A stretch of 64,000 nucleotides of DNA from Escherichia virus TH06, in the sequence record MT446386.1; one strand, written 5' to 3'. Position 1 is the first letter of the stretch. The number at the start of each line of letters is the position of its first letter. Below the pieces are notes generated by a model. That model was not told where the DNA came from. It ran no database searches and saw only the letters and a program-made list of their open reading frames with translations. The translations under genes were made by a program, and so were the position numbers. Positions 2,222 to 27,847 of the stretch are shown in pieces.

Positions 2222-3026
2222 GCTCCCTGAAGTTGCTCTAGTGGATGCTGACGTTCTTCGATATGAAGTGGGTGCTCTTACTCAGGAGCATCCTTTTCTT
2301 GACACAGGACGTGTTCCAGTTGATTACAATTTCATGATTGAACGACTTCAGTACAAGATTGATACGATCATATCTCGCTCAGGTTGCAGTAAGGTTGTAT
2401 TCTACTTCAGCGAAGGTGGTAACTTCCGTTTCGATGTTGCTAAGCAACAAGACTACAAGGCAAACAGACCTCCCGGAGAAAGACCTTTTCATTGGCAAAA
2501 CGTTGGTGATTACATTAAAGCCAAGTACGAATACATTGAGGTCTTTGGGAGAGAAGCTGATGATGCACTAGCTGAAAGGCAACGTAGGGATAAGAATACT
2601 ATCATCTGTACCAGAGACAAGGATTTGTTGATAACTCCCGGATGGCATTATCGCTGGGCTTGTGGAGAAAGGCAGAAAGAAGTCCCTCCTCACTATGTAT
2701 CTGATTTAGTCTCATGGCAAAACTTCTTCTATCAAATGTTGATTGGAGACGGTACGGATAATATTTCCGGATGTGGGGAACGTGAAGAAGTCATGTGGGG
2801 TGGTAAGCTTCAGCTTCGACGTCAAGGAGTAGGGAAGAAGGCAGCAGCTAAATTACTAGCTGGTGTTACAGATAAGTGGACCATGTATCATATAGTACGA
2901 ATGGAATATTATAAGAAGTTCGATACTGAAGATGAAGAGAAGATGCTTGAGAATGCGCGGCTGCTCTTTGTTGGTCAGACTCCTGAAGACCTGTTCGACT
3001 GGACATGGTTAGATAAATCTTGGTAA
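2199..3026 (+). CDS. 5'-3' exonuclease / flap endonuclease (FEN family)
   Basis: Motifs LVDADVLRY, GREADDALA, ICTRDKDLL, IGDGTDNISGCG and GKKAAAKLL (H3TH-like); start uncertain among TTG 2184, ATG 2199, ATG 2208. Confidence 0.6.
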   Translation: MIFMEEVKLPEVALVDADVLRYEVGALTQEHPFLDTGRVPVDYNFMIERLQYKIDTIISRSGCSKVVFYFSEGGNFRFDVAKQQDYKANRPPGERPFHWQNVGDYIKAKYEYIEVFGREADDALAERQRRDKNTIICTRDKDLLITPGWHYRWACGERQKEVPPHYVSDLVSWQNFFYQMLIGDGTDNISGCGEREEVMWGGKLQLRRQGVGKKAAAKLLAGVTDKWTMYHIVRMEYYKKFDTEDEEKMLENARLLFVGQTPEDLFDWTWLDKSW

Positions 3027-3039
3027 TAAGGATATTATA

Positions 3040-3219
3040 ATGGGTAAATTTGATTATCGTTCATATGATGAAAACTACTCCAACCGTGAATCTCGTAAAG
3101 ACCAAAAGATTAAACATCAACTGTTTGATCAGAGAACTGGTCGTATTCCTCGTGAGGGTAAGGTGAGCCATCGTGTAAACAAACGAGTTTGGGAAGAAGC
3201 TGATTATGGCGAAGTCTGA
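3040..3219 (+). CDS. hypothetical small protein (59 aa)
   Basis: ATG preceded by AAGGA; below the track length cutoff; overlaps the next gene start. Confidence 0.3.
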   Translation: MGKFDYRSYDENYSNRESRKDQKIKHQLFDQRTGRIPREGKVSHRVNKRVWEEADYGEV

Positions 3220-3607
3220 GAAGACTCGCTGTAGTGGAATGTGGACTGAAGCTCGTTACAACTCTTTCATCAAGTCAGGGATTCGTTCTCTGACTAGAAA
3301 GTGGAAGCCCATGTTCGATGCACTAGCAGACGCCAAGACAGAGCAGAAGATTAATCCAAAGACAGGTAGACTGGCAATGCACTTTAAGTGTGCCATGTGT
3401 GGTTCTGACCACCCTGTAAAGGATATGGCTATTGACCACATAGAACCTATAGTTCCTCTTGACCACGAAGCAACTTGGGATGAGATCATCTCTCGTGCTC
3501 TGTGTGAGAAAGAAGGTTTTCAGGTTCTGTGTAAAGACCCTTGTCATAAGATTAAAACAAAAGAAGAGAATGATGCAAGAAAACAATTCAAAAAAGGAAA
3601 TGAGTGA
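3206..3607 (+). CDS. HNH endonuclease
   Basis: Cys pairs and DHIEP ... CHKIK HNH-type motif. Confidence 0.55.
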   Translation: MAKSEKTRCSGMWTEARYNSFIKSGIRSLTRKWKPMFDALADAKTEQKINPKTGRLAMHFKCAMCGSDHPVKDMAIDHIEPIVPLDHEATWDEIISRALCEKEGFQVLCKDPCHKIKTKEENDARKQFKKGNE

Positions 3608-3827
3608 TGATCAAAAATCTACGCAACAAGTGCTTCGCTTTCGCTATCGCAATTGGAGAGGCGAGGTTTCTGACCGGTCCGTTATTCCACTCCGAACCTC
3701 CGTTGCTAGCTCCCGTTTTCATAACGGTGGCAAACCTTGTTGGATTATGACAGCAATAGATGTAGAGAAAGATGAGATTCGAGAATTCAAACTCTCTGAC
3801 ATTATTCAGTATTATGATTTAATCTAG
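3600..3827 (+). CDS. hypothetical protein (75 aa)
   Basis: In-frame ATG with RBS AAGGAA inside track ORF 3459..3827; overlaps HNH stop. Confidence 0.4.
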   Translation: MSDDQKSTQQVLRFRYRNWRGEVSDRSVIPLRTSVASSRFHNGGKPCWIMTAIDVEKDEIREFKLSDIIQYYDLI

Positions 3828-3835
3828 GAACTGAC

Positions 3836-3997
3836 ATGATCACACAAGCAGATAAAAATAAACTCTTCGACTTAATCCATGACCTACTAGAAGCTCAGAG
3901 CTTTATTGACAATGCCGATACTTGGGAGATGGAAGCAGCTGGAAAAGCTTTTGATGAAAGTGAAGAGAAACTTACTAATTTTATAAACACAATCTAG
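3836..3997 (+). CDS. hypothetical small protein (53 aa)
   Basis: Open frame from ATG 3836 to TAG 3995..3997, translated by hand. Confidence 0.25.
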   Translation: MITQADKNKLFDLIHDLLEAQSFIDNADTWEMEAAGKAFDESEEKLTNFINTI

Positions 3998-4154
3998 GGG
4001 GAGTTATATGAATGAAGAAGTTGTTATTCTTGGAAGTAAATCAGATTGGTTCTACGGAGGCATCTCAGGATGCTTTGAAGATGAACATCCAGACTTCTGA
4101 AGAGAATTGGGATGTATGACGAATTTGATGGTTTTTAAAACTTAGAAACAAATA

Positions 4155-4191
4155 AAGCCCTCTTGGATTTCTCCTTGAGGGCTTTTCTTTT
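4155..4191. terminator. bidirectional intrinsic terminator between convergent plus and minus transcription units
   Basis: Hairpin AAGCCCTC...GAGGGCTT followed by TTTTCTTTT on plus; U-rich on minus as well. Confidence 0.6.
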
Positions 4192-4192
4192 A

Positions 4193-7100
4193 TCACTCCT
4201 TAGGTCGAACTCTTACACGGAGTCTCGATTGACGCTTACTGCGTTCAAGCTTCTCTGACAATGAGCCACGTTTAATCTTCGGCTTCCCTTCGTCATTAAA
4301 CTTCTCCAAGAACTGCAAGTACTCAGTACGATTGGTTGTCTTGTAAGAAGGAATCTTAATATCAGGGTTCTCTTCAATTACACGTCTCATCTTCGCTACA
4401 TCATCCCTACCAAGCAACTTACTCTTAGCCTGTTCAGCTGTAGAACCAAAGATTTTCTCCAGTGCTCTGGATTTGTTACCACCTGCGGAAGAAGCACCAA
4501 GTTTAGCAATGGCAGAGTAATCATCAGCACTAAACCAAGCTACTGGATTATCACCATACTTCTTCTTGTTTTCAGCAGCAGTCTGCAATGCACGTACAAA
4601 GCGACGGTTGTTACCAGCCTTATCTGCACCATGAACCCTGTCTAAAACTTCAGCCACACTAACCAACTCATCCAAGCTTTTCCCACTCAAGAAAGCTTTC
4701 TCTACTTTATCAGCAAAGACCTCTTCCTGTTGTTTAATGCTTTCCAAGATATCAGAATTTGCTTGAGATCTTTCATCATCAGGCAGAGCAGAACGAATCT
4801 TCTCCATCTCCAACTCTTCCTCTTGCAGTTTCTTAATATCAGAGTCAACCTTCTGAGCCTCCTCAATAGCCTTCCTGGTATCCGCATCCAAGTTATCAAG
4901 CTTACCTTCAGTATCTCCAGTAACCTTAACAATCTCTTTCTCGATAGGGGTCATTGATTCATACTTCTTAGCAAACTTCTCAACATCAGCTTCGATACGA
5001 GAACGAGCATTCTGATGTTCAGTAGGAGTCATAGGCTTCTCAAGAAGTGCATAACGGTTATCCATATAGGAACCAGCAAATGCTTCAGCATCCTCTCTAG
5101 ATATGCCCTTATCTTCCATAGTACGCATCAGGCGGCGATGAATGTCATCACGTTGACGTTGTACTGCCATAAGGTCATTCTCACGCTCTTGGGCCGCTTT
5201 AAGCTCTTCACTGCGCTTAACTCTCTTGTCCACATCAAACTTACGGTTCATTTCTTCCGCTTGCTCATACATCTTGTTCCACTTGGCCTGACGAGCATCT
5301 TCCTCTGCATCAGTTAAACGACGCTGACGATCAAGGTAATCTGACTCGGCGTTGTGGATACGTTCAATGTAACTACGGAACTTCTCTGGAGGAACTGGAG
5401 AGTTCTTGTCATGGTGAGCAGCCAACTGTTTCAATGTACGAGATTCCTGAGCCTCACGAACAGGTTTAGGTAAACCTTCCATCATCTTCTCAATCTCACT
5501 CTTCTGAGCTGCAATAGCCTCTAGAGTTTTACGTTCATTCTCAACAGCAGCCTTAGCATCTGAACGAGCCTGAGCCTTTTTCCTGAGGGTAGCAAGACGT
5601 TCTTCACGAGCCTGTAAGTGCTTAGCAGCAGCTTCGTACTGAGAGTTCTTGTTAGCTTTGTTGAAGGCATTCACTTCTCTGTTGTAGGTGTTAATAAACC
5701 CATCCCAAATATCCTTCATCTGACCGACTTCCAAAGCCTCTTCCCTACCAGCCTTCTCTGAAGATTTAAACTTCCCATCTACAAAGTCATTCATCAGCTT
5801 ACGCATAGCATCTTTCTGAGCAGGACGTAAAGGTTCTGAATCAATCAAAGCATCAATCTCAGACTGAAGCTCTTTCTTCTGGTCAACCAGTTTAGGAGCA
5901 TCTTTCTTATCGAAAGCTTTGTTCTCTTCTAGAGCTTGTTGGTACAGTCTATCAAACTCATCCTCACGCTGCTTCTGATACAACCTTTCAGCACGACGTT
6001 TCAGACTATCCAAGTTAGTTACGTTCCCACCTAAACCTTTCTCTTCAGCACGTAATGCCTTAGTGGCAATGTCTTCTGGCAGACCACGTTCTTTAACCCA
6101 TTCAGCAAAATTAGTTCGTACAGTGTTGTTCTTAGCAGTAGCAATACCTTGCTGAGAGGCCAGCTGGTTACGAGCCATTTCTTCATGACGTTCAGTATTG
6201 ATAGCATTATCTTCCTGACGAATACGACGCATCAGTTCCTTAGGATCGCCTTTATAAGCCAAGAAGTTTTCAGCAGTAGCTTTAGCTTTAGCAGCCTTAG
6301 AGTACAGAGAACGAGCAAAGCGTTCTGCACGATCTTTAGTAGCCTGACGAGCAGCACTAGACATAGCAGCTAAACGTTCTACACCACTTGCCGGTTTAAC
6401 GTCCTGTACAGCTTCCTTAGGAGCTTTAGGAGCACGAGCAGGTAATGGCTCAGCTTTGACTGTTGGTTCCTCTACGGTTGGTTCTGGAGCCTGTGCGGCC
6501 TCTTCTTGAGCACGTTGCTGTTCCATTGCACGACGCTCCTCTAGAGGGTTACGAGCAGGGAGAGGTTCAGCCTGTGGAGCTTGTTCGACCGGAGCTTCTT
6601 GAGCTGCTGCTGCCTCTTCTTCAGCGCGACGCTGTTCAGCCTGACGGATAGCGCGTCTTTGCGCAACTAAATCACGAGCTGTGAGAGGGGTTTCTTGAGG
6701 AGTAGAAGAAGGAAGATTTTCTTCCGTCACAGTACTAGAAGAAGGCTCCCGAACCGGTTCGGTTTCCACGTCATTTTGCGTCTTAAATTTAATGTCATCA
6801 ACAACTGGTTCTTCTTCCATCTTAGCACGAGCTTCATCAGCAGTAGATTTAGCACGAGCAACTTCCAAATCACCACGAGCCAGAGAGCGGATAGCTTCAC
6901 TATTAGACTCTTGTTGCTTAACACGTTGAGAACGGGCACGCTGAGAAGAGAAGCGATTCAGAGCATATTTAGCAGCACCGAGAGTGTTCATCACCAGACT
7001 AGGAGAAGAAGCCTCACGGAATCCATCATCAGTCAAGGAAGTCCAACCACGATCTTGGTTGCTCATGAATTTAGCTGTATTGTTCAGAGTGTAAGCATCT

Positions 7101-24911: not shown

Positions 24912-25661
24912 TTATACACGAGAAGTACGAATACCATAAATATCAGGCAAGCTGCTCTGAAGTCGAGTCATGTTATTCGGAATTGCGATAGGTGAACCTG
25001 AGTACTCTTGTTTCTTATTCTGTTCTACCATTTCATCAAGGATAGCTTTTCCTAATGCTGACCATTTCTGAACACCATTATCATCTTGAACAAAGAGACA
25101 AGCATGACGTAGGGTGAAGTACAGAAGAAGTTCTGGTGCTATAGTAAGAATAGTACTAGTATCTGTATCTTCATGGAATTCCGGTGGGTCTGCATAATAG
25201 CTAAGAATCACTGAGTTTTCTGCTGGAATCAAAGGGCTTCCATCATCAGGGTAGTACGGAGTATCTGCTTCGATGCTAGGGTAGAAAATGAAACGACTAC
25301 CGAAACGAGCAAAGTTGACAGGTTGGTTATTCCAGTGAGATGGGTTAATTGTTCCATGCTGTCTACGATAGCTAATCTCTTCAGGAGAGGTTACTTGGAA
25401 GATTGTGCCATCTTTGGCTCTCATCATCCATTGAGCTTCTAAGTAATCAGGAGGAATGTAAGCTACTCCATCTTTAATATCTAAATACACTTCTTTTTCC
25501 AGAGGAGGAATACGTAAGTTACGATAAATCTCTTTCTCTGCAAAGTTAATAAAGTTTGGAATTTGATTAACAAATTCGTCATCGTCCCTATCTGCCCAGA
25601 GGGCCACGGCCTTCTTTAGCCACCCATAGGTATTGATGGGGTATTGAACGTCAGGCAACAT
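24912..25661 (-). CDS. virion structural protein (putative head-tail adaptor)
   Basis: Strong RBS GGAAGGAGG 6 nt before the ATG at 25661; track start 25688 lacks an RBS. Confidence 0.4.
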   Translation of the reverse strand: MLPDVQYPINTYGWLKKAVALWADRDDDEFVNQIPNFINFAEKEIYRNLRIPPLEKEVYLDIKDGVAYIPPDYLEAQWMMRAKDGTIFQVTSPEEISYRRQHGTINPSHWNNQPVNFARFGSRFIFYPSIEADTPYYPDDGSPLIPAENSVILSYYADPPEFHEDTDTSTILTIAPELLLYFTLRHACLFVQDDNGVQKWSALGKAILDEMVEQNKKQEYSGSPIAIPNNMTRLQSSLPDIYGIRTSRV

Positions 25662-26163
25662 AGGATACCTCCTTCCAGTTTGTGCCATTGATTATCAGGC
25701 TTATTGTACTTGAAGAGACTCCAAACTTCCTAGCTAAAGCTCTAGCTCCGAACTGTCTGTCCCTCGGTTTATAGTTCTCTAAACAGAAAAGAACTTGTTC
25801 TTTAGTAAGCTTGGAATTAGGGTTATCCTCAAGATTCCTTGGTGTTGAGAGTTTTGTTTCATAAGCATGTACACAGTTTTCTTGTTGAGTACACCACTCT
25901 AGATTCTCAATCCTGTTGTCATCTTTTATTCCATTCTTATGGTTGACATAGTCCTTCCCTTCTACTTTAGGAAGAAAGAGTTCAGCTATGACCCTGTGCT
26001 CTAGGTATGATTTCTTCTTGAAGGTTAGTACACGATATCCCTTATTATTAATACATCCAGCACGTTGCCTTTTCTGTTTATTGAATATATTACTCATAGA
26101 CCAGAAAAGATGCCCTGTATTTGGGTTATATGTAAAAGCTCCTCTGAAATCTGGCATTGCCAT
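25651..26163 (-). CDS. HNH homing endonuclease
   Basis: HNH core YLEHRVIAELF...NHKNGIKDDNRIENLEW; inserted between capsid and tail genes and overlapping the downstream gene start. Confidence 0.6.
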   Translation of the reverse strand: MAMPDFRGAFTYNPNTGHLFWSMSNIFNKQKRQRAGCINNKGYRVLTFKKKSYLEHRVIAELFLPKVEGKDYVNHKNGIKDDNRIENLEWCTQQENCVHAYETKLSTPRNLEDNPNSKLTKEQVLFCLENYKPRDRQFGARALARKFGVSSSTISLIINGTNWKEVSYVA

Positions 26164-26231: not shown

Positions 26232-26258
26232 CGAAAAAACCCCGCCCGAAGGCAGGGT
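26232..26258 (-). terminator. intrinsic terminator after capsid genes
   Basis: Hairpin CCCTGCC-TTCG-GGCGGGG followed by TTTTTT on the minus strand. Confidence 0.6.
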
Positions 26259-26264
26259 CTAGTT

Positions 26265-26777
26265 TTAAGCAGGTGTTACACCAGTAAAAGTGCATGTTGC
26301 ATTGATGGATGGGTCAGCTGTCAAACTTGCTTGAACAGTAACTTCGCCACTTGCAGCAGCATCTAAGGTTAACGCACCAGCGGCGCTTACTGTACCAGCT
26401 TCTGTAGGGGTTACAACAAACGTGTAATCCGCAGCAGTAGAATTAGTTACAGTAAACATGGTAGTGAAGTTAGTGGAAGAACCACCAGTTTTACCCGTAA
26501 TTGGACCCTTAGCTACAATAGTAGGAGCAGGAGCAACAATTTCAGAAATGGTTGCTGTACCAGAAACACCTTCTAAAGTTGCAGTAATGGATACATCAGT
26601 GGATTGAGACGCACTCGGAGCAGTATACAAACCAGACTGAGTGATAGAACCACCTCCTGTCACTGACCAAGTAAAGCCAGTTGTTTCGGTAGAACCATCA
26701 CTTTTCTCCGCGCTTGCAGTGAACTGCCGAGTAGCCCCTGTCTCTAGACTTGCTAAAGACGCAGGGCTAACAGTCAC
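26265..26777 (-). CDS. Ig-like (Big_2-type) domain, probably expressed as a frameshifted C-terminal extension of the capsid protein
   Basis: Frame is open upstream through the capsid stop; GTG at 26777; Thr/Ser-rich Ig-like sequence. Confidence 0.45.
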   Translation of the reverse strand: MTVSPASLASLETGATRQFTASAEKSDGSTETTGFTWSVTGGGSITQSGLYTAPSASQSTDVSITATLEGVSGTATISEIVAPAPTIVAKGPITGKTGGSSTNFTTMFTVTNSTAADYTFVVTPTEAGTVSAAGALTLDAAASGEVTVQASLTADPSINATCTFTGVTPA

Positions 26778-26788
26778 ACTGTCTACTG

Positions 26789-27847
26789 TTACGCCGCCAC
26801 CTTTCCCGCGGCAGTGAACAGAACGCCGGAAGCGTACGGGTTGCGGTGACGCAGACCAACTTCCATTTCAATCATCCACTTCTCGTAAGAACCGTCTTTA
26901 GCCAGTTCAGTGCGTTTCGGAGCACGCAGAACCATCTGAGTCCAGTCAGCGCTACGGAAGAAGTAAACTGCATCGGTAGGCATCCAACGGTTAACGATGA
27001 TTTTGTAGCTCTGGCCCAGCGGGTCAGTGATGCTGTTAACTTCGTAGATGAACTGCTTGGTGTTCTCAAAGATACGCTTACGTGAACCCTGAGTATTTTC
27101 TTGCAGACCAGCGAAGATCTTAGCATGAGCCGGGTTAATCATGATGATATCTGCTTCAGAACCAGCGGTATACAGTTGCAGAGTCATATCAAAGATATCA
27201 GCTTCGTCAAAACCAATGTTAGTGGTCGGGTTAGAAGCATTCTGTGCAACTTTAACAGTTACTGCACCAGTATCCGGGTCAGCAGGACCATTCTTGGTCT
27301 TGTCAACAACGCCACCAGCAAGACCACCGTGAGCACACAGGAACTGGAATGCACCAGTCTTACGAGCTGCATGAGTGTCGTTCAGACCAACAGTTGCAGG
27401 ATCAGTTGCAGAGTTAGTCAGGTACTGATCAGCCAGAACGTCGGTACGAGCCTGACCGGACAGAAGGATTTTCTCGAGGTCACGCTTGATCTCTTTACCT
27501 TTCTTCTCCAGCTGATACATCAGTTCACGACCACGACCGTAGTTAGCGGTGGTGTTAGCAGTATCAGAAACACGAACAACCTTACGCAGAATCTGAGTAA
27601 CGTTAGATTTGATAACAGTCGGTTTCATTTCGCCGTCTTCAGCACGAGAGCCTTCGACGTGTGCGTTATTACCGTCAACGCTTGCCAGTGCATCGGTCTG
27701 CCAGCTAAAGATAGTCTGGTTGATAGACTCTTTACCGGTCATAGATACGAACGGGGTATCCTGAGGGGACAGAACAGAAATCCAGTTAGCAAAAGAAAGT
27801 TTTTTACCATTCTGGTCATACGATACAAATAAAGTTGGATTAGCCAT
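26789..27847 (-). CDS. major capsid protein
   Basis: 352 aa ORF immediately downstream of the acidic scaffold gene and upstream of a strong terminator. Confidence 0.55.
   Translation of the reverse strand: MANPTLFVSYDQNGKKLSFANWISVLSPQDTPFVSMTGKESINQTIFSWQTDALASVDGNNAHVEGSRAEDGEMKPTVIKSNVTQILRKVVRVSDTANTTANYGRGRELMYQLEKKGKEIKRDLEKILLSGQARTDVLADQYLTNSATDPATVGLNDTHAARKTGAFQFLCAHGGLAGGVVDKTKNGPADPDTGAVTVKVAQNASNPTTNIGFDEADIFDMTLQLYTAGSEADIIMINPAHAKIFAGLQENTQGSRKRIFENTKQFIYEVNSITDPLGQSYKIIVNRWMPTDAVYFFRSADWTQMVLRAPKRTELAKDGSYEKWMIEMEVGLRHRNPYASGVLFTAAGKVAA
26801..26807 (-). other. slippery heptamer G GGA AAG (candidate -1 programmed frameshift site)
   Basis: X XXY YYZ motif four codons before the capsid stop; the -1 frame continues without a stop into 26265..26777. 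Confidence 0.45.

Follow-up and report, generated by a model that had tools for sequence, protein, structure and literature searches.

From its sequence, the major capsid gene examined here very probably uses a programmed -1 frameshift to fuse two Ig-like domains to a share of the capsid subunits. A capsid-Ig frameshift of this kind is already known, having been published for phiEco32 (as cited in later papers), SU10, Privateer and YF01, and finding it again adds nothing new in itself. The contrast between slip-site variants and tandem capsid paralogs among relatives is a modest lead. Three by-products of the analysis may be new: variation of the slip site, replacement of the frameshift by paralogs, and loss of the extension in SU10 through a change that perfected a palindrome.

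The window, by which we mean the whole 64,000-nucleotide stretch of DNA analysed, is from a Kuravirus, a phiEco32-like coliphage and podophage. Over the 1.7-kb capsid-Ig region its DNA is 99.8-99.9% identical to phiEc_1, KM01 and MN03, 98.4% identical to phiEco32 and 98.1% identical to SU10. The assignment is based on this 98-99.9% identity, on Pfam matches to SU10_MCP and SU10_adaptor, and on gene order, which runs portal, small ORF, scaffold, capsid, Ig extension, terminator, HNH gene, adaptor and tail fibre.

Slip site and reading frames at the capsid 3' end

The features on which the reading depends are the following.

26789..27847, minus strand: major capsid protein gene (0 frame), 352 aa, 38.7 kDa, SU10_MCP family
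26789..26867, minus strand: overlap zone in which the 0 frame and the -1 frame are both open, bounded upstream by a TGA
26807..26801, minus strand: slippery heptamer GGGAAAG, read as G GGA AAG in the X XXY YYZ register of the capsid ORF
26265..26801, minus strand: -1 frame extension, made up of the linker GGGVTVDS and, in tandem, two Ig-like beta-sandwich domains of the Big_2 type

The capsid protein matches Pfam PF17236 (SU10_MCP) with E = 6e-77 and is near-identical to the SU10 chains in PDB 7z45 and 7z4b, with three substitutions in the printed alignment. SU10_MCP is the HK97-fold capsid of prolate Kuravirus heads. A strong Shine-Dalgarno sequence (SD), TAGGAG, lies upstream of the gene, and its 3' end on the minus strand reads GCC GCG GGA AAG GTG GCG GCG TAA. 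The AAG of the heptamer is thus the fourth sense codon from the end, followed by three sense codons and TAA. The original prediction had placed G GGA AAG at 26807..26801 on this strand, near the capsid stop, and both the sequence and the register bear it out. In the -1 frame, a TGA at 26870..26868 is the last upstream stop. This frame then stays open from 26867, which lies 78 nt ahead of the capsid stop, until its own stop at 26267..26265. Reading after the slip begins with GGT at 26801 and continues for 178 codons before the stop. The extension had earlier been given as 171 codons over 26265..26777; this matches the GTG-to-stop ORF with its stop codon counted, but omits the eight linker codons that specify GGGVTVDS.

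In the mechanism that we propose, most ribosomes would read GGA AAG GTG GCG GCG TAA and produce the 352-aa capsid protein. A minority would slip back by one base, with the Gly and Lys tRNAs on G GGA AAG re-pairing simultaneously with GGG AAA, and would then read GGT GGC GGC GTA and onward past the capsid stop. The protein that they make would be 527 aa long and would end in a short Gly-rich linker followed by two Ig-like domains of the Big_2 type. The predicted mass of the capsid protein is 38.66 kDa and that of the trans-frame fusion 55.65 kDa, the latter in agreement with the ~55 kDa estimated beforehand for the long form. The predicted trans-frame junction is ...FTAAGKGGGVTVDSVTVSPASLASLETGATR, where ...FTAAGK is followed by GGGV, and the predicted tryptic junction peptide, GGGVTVDSVTVSPASLASLETGATR, follows K349. 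Documentation of a junction peptide was not found in the literature searched on this phage group.

Numbers of the bare motif are unremarkable. GGGAAAG occurs seven times in the 64-kb window against 7.4 +/- 3.1 expected, so that its significance lies in placement and not in count. We therefore asked of each XXXYYYZ heptamer whether it lies in register with an ORF of at least 150 codons, whether a 0-frame stop follows within 30 codons, and whether the -1 frame continues for at least 60 codons further. Among 362 such heptamers on both strands of the 64 kb, the capsid site is the only one that combines all three. For the remaining six copies of GGGAAAG, in no case (0/6) does the in-register frame stay open beyond 12 codons upstream.

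The extension is rich in Thr (21%) and Ser (13%), as had been noted from the sequence at the outset, and also in Ala (14%) and Gly (11%). Residues 6-83, which make up domain 1, match Pfam Big_2 (PF02368) at 25.3 bits, above the gathering threshold of 22.8; no separate Pfam match was obtained for domain 2. An AlphaFold2 model of the extension, built with 21 homologs, has two all-beta domains and a mean pLDDT of 96.4. Foldseek searches with this model return tandem bacterial Ig-like domains, among them Leptospira LigA (8gyr, E = 4e-11), and at rank 36 the phi29 prohead chain 6qvk with its fused BIG2 domain, at 28% identity over 108 columns. The original prediction of an Ig-like domain was therefore right about the fold, on which Big_2, AlphaFold2 and Foldseek agree, but one short in its count. 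Codon differences in the extension at ~93% capsid identity, 40-41 synonymous and 32-33 non-synonymous, indicate purifying selection.

The Ig domains would presumably sit on the outer surface of the prolate head, and they may serve in adhesion, the role usually proposed for phage Ig-like domains. By analogy with characterised sites, slippage could operate at a few percent to ~10%, which would place the extension on tens of the 715 capsid subunits in each head (PMC9509320).

The extension in relatives

Related loci with the same two-frame layout differ in capsid identity, slip site and the length of the -1 extension.

L001-L008 (Kuravirus loci): capsid identity 93-100%; G GGA AAG; -1 extension of 178-180 codons (11 in SU10)
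L020: capsid identity 85%; G GGA AAG; -1 extension of 192 codons
L021: capsid identity 85%; C CCA AAG; -1 extension of 271 codons
L022: capsid identity 80%; G GGA AAG; -1 extension of 440 codons
L015, Proteus phage J3S: capsid identity 58%; G GGA AAG adjoining the stop; -1 extension of 169 codons
L009-L012, L018 and L023-L026: capsid identity 57-74%; GTA, ACA or TCA AAG, one codon before the stop; -1 extension of 88-297 codons

The element A AAG is invariant in all 20 of the 20 frameshift-type loci and stands 0-4 codons before the stop, and the -1 ORF has 88 to 440 codons in every frameshift-type relative except SU10. C CCA AAG is another efficient slip site in E. coli. The minimal NNA AAG sites, for example GTA AAG GCG TAA and ACA AAG CCG TAA, lack canonical P-site re-pairing, and L009-L011 have a GC-rich hairpin 6 nt past GTA AAG.

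Among nine diverged relatives, eight have extensions that match Big_2, I-set or Ig_3, often from residues 1-8. Because several of these Ig domains start at positions 1-8 past the slip, the whole domain would be made only by frameshifting. Five homologs in which capsid and Big_2 domain form a single ORF (P0056, P0063, P0069, P0020 and P0085) are collinear with the predicted fusion across the junction, and the YF01 capsid has been deposited as an 892-aa trans-frame product.

SU10 is the exception. Its -1 frame meets a premature stop 11 codons after the slip, and the Ig ORF then lies in the 0 frame behind TAA-CAG-TAG; in a published comparison SU10 is alone in the group in this respect (PMC9965538). 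Neither an extra capsid density nor an extra band has been seen for SU10 (PMC9509320, PMC9965538), and the premature stop explains the cryo-EM result (PMC9509320). That SU10 does without the extension also means that, under laboratory conditions at least, the long form is not required. The lesion consists of a change from AACAGTAGACAGTGTGACTGTT to AACAGTAGACACTGTCTACTGTT, and the new sequence has perfect inverted arms of 11 nt, which suggests that the extension was lost through a quasi-palindrome-templated mutation. In the mass spectrometry table for SU10, the entry '9+10' has 50.29% coverage of 527 aa, or 265 aa, and capsid alone has 78.1% of 352 aa, or 275 aa. Capsid peptides alone could thus explain the '9+10' coverage, and the published evidence for a fusion protein in SU10 is weaker than its citations imply.

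The frameshift is missing from several relatives, which instead have tandem capsid paralogs, 61-73% identical: a short copy and a long one that bears the Ig extension in frame.

SeKF_80: capsid paralogs of 312 and 589 aa
PKM.Lu.22.1: capsid paralogs of 314 and 778 aa
L014: at least three full capsid copies
L013: tandem capsid pair, the second copy running past the contig end

Short and long capsid proteins also share contigs in a protein search. In our literature search, which was not exhaustive, we found no mention of capsid paralogs in the PhiGT1 or Privateer papers.

One could envision, although we lean against it, that possession of a short and a long, Ig-bearing capsid is a conserved trait of the SU10_MCP family, achieved by three interchangeable devices. 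These would be a G GGA AAG or C CCA AAG heptamer; a minimal NNA AAG followed by one codon and the stop; and tandem duplication with in-frame fusion. If this reading is true, it suggests a selected role for the long isoform and not an accident. If the minimal sites do frameshift, the family would offer a natural series in which to follow the origin of a recoding site, its decay and its replacement by duplication. The main practical value of these results is in annotation, as the capsid/Ig locus is usually wrong in public records and the start codon of the supposed second gene is not conserved. Kuraviruses are used in phage therapy cocktails, and a capsid C-terminus fed by frameshifting is a natural low-copy display site, of the kind exploited in K1F and T7 (PMC13370021).

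Start signals, RNA structure and alternative readings

Two further elements bear on how the locus is transcribed and recoded.

26237..26260, minus strand: intrinsic terminator with a 10-bp stem (6 G-C) and a T-run, directly after the extension stop
26769..26790, minus strand: inverted repeat AACAGT...ACTGTT, 6 bp, starting 10 nt beyond the heptamer; it may form a weakly stimulatory hairpin

The terminator, which is annotated at the same site in the SU10 record, closes a transcription unit made up of the capsid gene and its extension, and the two ORFs are co-transcribed. From the capsid start to 26260, we found no other strong terminator and no promoter match on the same strand; there is a single weak match to the terminator consensus inside the capsid gene.

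Stimulatory elements of such sites are hairpins or pseudoknots 5-9 nt downstream, or SD-like sequences upstream. In L005, L006 and L007 the inverted repeat is predicted to form a stem, and in SU10 it is lengthened to perfect arms of 11 nt. It takes no part in the minimum-free-energy fold found in the window, and L020-L022 and J3S do not conserve it. The downstream fold (+1..+101) has z = -1.99; its main hairpin, which begins at about +20, is likewise not conserved in L020-L022 or J3S. Folding the 70 nt after the slip codon locus by locus revealed no structure of conserved position or spacing, and L021, L022 and J3S are poorly registered in the DNA alignment of 10 junctions. No SD-like element was found upstream of the heptamer. 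We also considered as a conserved stimulator the stem-loop of Mirzaei et al., which holds the heptamer in its loop (CTGCYGC...GYGGCGG). It can form in the window, phiEco32, SU10 and L005; we rejected it because it is broken in L006/L007 and absent from L020/L022, and because it would be melted with the ribosome on the slip site. Since a conserved stimulator was not found, the efficiency of frameshifting could be low. The lambda G/GT site is not known to have a strong RNA stimulator.

The Ig ORF might alternatively be a separate gene whose own start, at GTG 26777 or internally, would yield a free protein of ~17 kDa that binds the capsid non-covalently. A mechanically called ORF, 26265..26777, does begin with this GTG. 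Records in GenBank and RefSeq, including those of phiEco32, SU10 and ShigP1, mostly annotate a CDS of its own for an 'Ig domain containing protein' and have no slippage join, and SU10 gp10 has been discussed as a possible low-affinity minor capsid protein (PMC9509320). The start signals argue against such a gene. GTG 26777 has no SD, the preceding sequence being TGGCGGCGTAACAGTAGACAGT; neighbouring genes carry AGGAG, AAGGAGG, AGGAGA or GAGGGAG. This codon is GTA in L006 and L007 (KBNP1711) and ATA in L005, and the first 60 codons of the extension contain no ATG. Across 20 relatives the first possible start usually comes 16 to 83 codons in, within the first beta-sandwich, and an SD-like motif is missing at 57 of the 58 candidate starts listed for them. 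In the 12-codon stretch that opens with the slip site and closes with the GTG, six codons differ from L006/L007; in the -1 frame five of these differences are synonymous and one is non-synonymous, so -1-frame coding constraint already applies to the codons ahead of the GTG. Further evidence against a separate gene comes from the relatives whose Ig domains start at residues 1-8 past the slip site, from the homologs in which these domains and the capsid protein share one reading frame, and from the lack of any promoter or terminator found between the two ORFs. Taken together, these observations leave a separate gene with a small chance of being correct. A separately encoded decoration protein of the Hoc, Soc or gpD type was rejected on the same grounds: it would have neither a conserved start codon nor an SD as ribosome-binding site.

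The heptamer and the open -1 frame could also be an inherited, decaying remnant, at which frameshifting is negligible and the long isoform irrelevant. SU10, with its disrupted -1 frame, builds normal heads that lack the extension (PMC9509320), and the want of a conserved stimulatory structure fits such a remnant. SU10 is, however, the sole exception among the Kuravirus loci compared, and its loss is unique in the group according to PMC9965538. The extension stays open in all other frameshift-type relatives, is under purifying selection and folds with a pLDDT of 96; lineages that lack the frameshift retain a long isoform in the form of a second paralog, and Privateer virions contain the minor form (PMC7881722). 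We regard decay as very improbable. There is, finally, the prospect that RNA polymerase slips, or that the capsid gene is truly one long ORF split by a homopolymer error in sequencing or assembly. Runs of G3 and A3 are error-prone in some sequencing chemistries, and a single long capsid ORF is indeed present in SeKF_80 and in other relatives. The long ORFs of SeKF_80 and PKM.Lu.22.1, however, adjoin a separate short paralog to which they are only 63-73% identical, and hence are not the same gene with an error. Moreover, the two-frame layout recurs in every Kuravirus locus compared (L001-L008, L020-L022), and these loci come from isolates and metagenomes obtained independently. Most of the capsid-Ig region is matched by 76 deposited records. 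Transcriptional slippage requires far longer runs of A or T than A3. This last explanation can be set aside as next to impossible. Ribosomal frameshifting, as proposed in the original prediction, is thus the reading that we favour, and the expectations that a -1 frameshift sets at sequence level all hold: register, open frame, absence of a start, coding constraint ahead of any start codon, conservation, in-frame homologs and co-transcription.

Comparison with known systems

The nearest counterparts are phiEco32 gp11/gp12, SU10 gp9/gp10 and YF01 gp8, in which the same gene has the same heptamer in the same position, with an Ig extension. Savalia 2008 is cited for the phiEco32 capsid frameshift by three later papers (PMC4281155, PMC7881722, PMC9965538), and we know that work through these citations. 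For SU10, Mirzaei et al. 2014 described potential slippage at GGGAAAG that fuses the capsid to an Ig-like domain 'as in phage phiEco32' (PMC4281155), and a 2023 comparison of Kuraviruses reported that the heptamer, together with extended isoforms of ~500-550 aa, occurs group-wide (PMC9965538). Nothing essential separates the window from the phiEco32 group, to which it adds a downstream HNH gene. YF01 differs in its far longer extension, with 892 aa in total.

Privateer, a Proteus phage and prolate podophage of the Grimontviridae type, resembles the window in having GGGAAAG at the capsid 3' end and a -1 extension. Corban et al. 2021 attributed its major and minor capsid proteins to this heptamer, with two bands on gels and identification of the minor form by mass spectrometry (PMC7881722). 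Unlike the phiEco32 group, this system has only 58% capsid identity with the window and carries other extension domains. In J3S, a Privateer relative, the heptamer adjoins the stop and the 169-codon extension holds I-set and Big_2 domains.

The lambda G/GT junction has the identical G GGA AAG near the 3' end of its upstream ORF, and ribosomes slip there into the -1 frame at a low percentage. A rate of ~3.5% is given in PMC9965538, which cites Xu et al. 2004 for it. The outcomes differ: the lambda site feeds a non-structural assembly chaperone for which a fixed ratio is required, whereas the site in the window would feed a capsid isoform of the virion.

T7 10A/10B, T3 gene 10 and K1F gene 10b also produce a minor capsid isoform through a -1 shift near the 3' end, and their long isoform, like that predicted here, is confined to a subset of subunits and is dispensable. 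These phages have another capsid family and other slip sites, and the T7 10B extension is short and is not known to be a tandem Ig module. The rate of capsid frameshifting in T7 and T3 is ~10% (PMC9965538). Both the lambda G/GT and the T7 10A/10B analogies, drawn in the original prediction, are used in the literature itself (PMC7881722, PMC9965538).

Ig-like domains are widespread on phage structural proteins (Fraser et al. 2006, as cited in PMC9965538). Like the phage in the window, phi29 is a prolate podophage whose capsid protein, gp8, has a C-terminal Big_2/BIG2 domain. In phi29 the domain is on every subunit, because there is no recoding; in the window, the frameshift would restrict it to a share of them.

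Short and long capsid isoforms among relatives

Among the relatives' capsid loci compared with the window (L-numbers), those of L009-L012, L018 (Aeromonas phage 4_4572) and L023-L026 contain no X XXY YYZ heptamer in the final 10 nt of the capsid gene. Their capsid genes end instead in GTA, ACA or TCA followed by AAG, one further codon and TAA. Beyond this stop the -1 frame runs for 88-297 codons and encodes Ig-like domains that have no usable start. Because the Ig-like frame stays open without such a start, our comparison suggests frameshifting at a minimal A AAG site adjoining the stop. In L009-L011, a hairpin, GCG(C/T)CC-CTAC-GGGCGT, lies 6 nt 3' of the minimal site (z = -3.7 to -5.4).

The frameshift is absent in L017, L019, L013 and L014, each of which carries two to four tandem capsid paralogs that are 61-73% identical.

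Tandem capsid paralogs
2484-5270, L017 (Salmonella phage SeKF_80)
3501-6858, L019 (PKM.Lu.22.1)
3492-5464, L013
3-4433, L014

In L017, L019 and L014, a short capsid copy adjoins longer copies with an in-frame C-terminal extension of Ig type (long copies of 589 aa in L017 and 778 aa in L019); the second copy in L013 is cut by the contig end. Tandem paralogs are an alternative genetic means of making both a short and a long form of the capsid protein. L014 (IMGVR_UViG_3300033688_000038, a 124.9-kb contig) also has a dnaX-type heptamer, A AAA AAG, at 4421-4427, 3 nt from the stop of its last capsid paralog, past which the -1 extension is just 42 codons long.

The SU10 capsid locus

At 2611-2633 of SU10 (L002, KM044272), comparison with the homologous window segment (26790..26769) reveals a change of AACAGTAGACAGTGTGACTGTT to AACAGTAGACACTGTCTACTGTT, a mutation that truncates the -1 frame. 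Since the new sequence contains perfect 11-nt inverted arms, the lesion looks like a quasi-palindrome-templated change. After the mutation, the SU10 Ig ORF lies in the 0 frame, preceded by two stops (TAA CAG TAG).

The cited mass spectrometry support for a SU10 capsid-Ig fusion is weak. The '9+10' fusion entry has 22 peptides covering 50.29% of 527 aa, and the capsid alone has 23 peptides covering 78.1% of 352 aa (PMC4281155, Table 2). The fusion entry therefore covers no more residues than the capsid (265 versus 275), and by itself demonstrates no Ig-region peptide.

HNH insertion and adaptor start

Two overlapping features lie downstream of the extension in the window.

25651..26163, minus strand, gene for a 170-aa HNH_3 homing endonuclease, with a strong SD
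24912..25688, minus strand, adaptor ORF from its first ATG, 258 aa, no SD, overlapping the HNH gene

The HNH_3 gene is an insertion: the terminator of the extension lies on one side of it and the adaptor gene on the other, and it overlaps the 5' end of the adaptor ORF. Among 85 matching Kuravirus records, coverage of this region reaches 80% in only 10. TH38 matches it best (99.9%), whereas for the capsid region phiEc_1, KM01 and MN03 rank first, so the genome is mosaic here. The true adaptor start is probably an internal Met at residue 10, because the phiEco32 homolog has 250 aa, compared with 258 aa for the window ORF.
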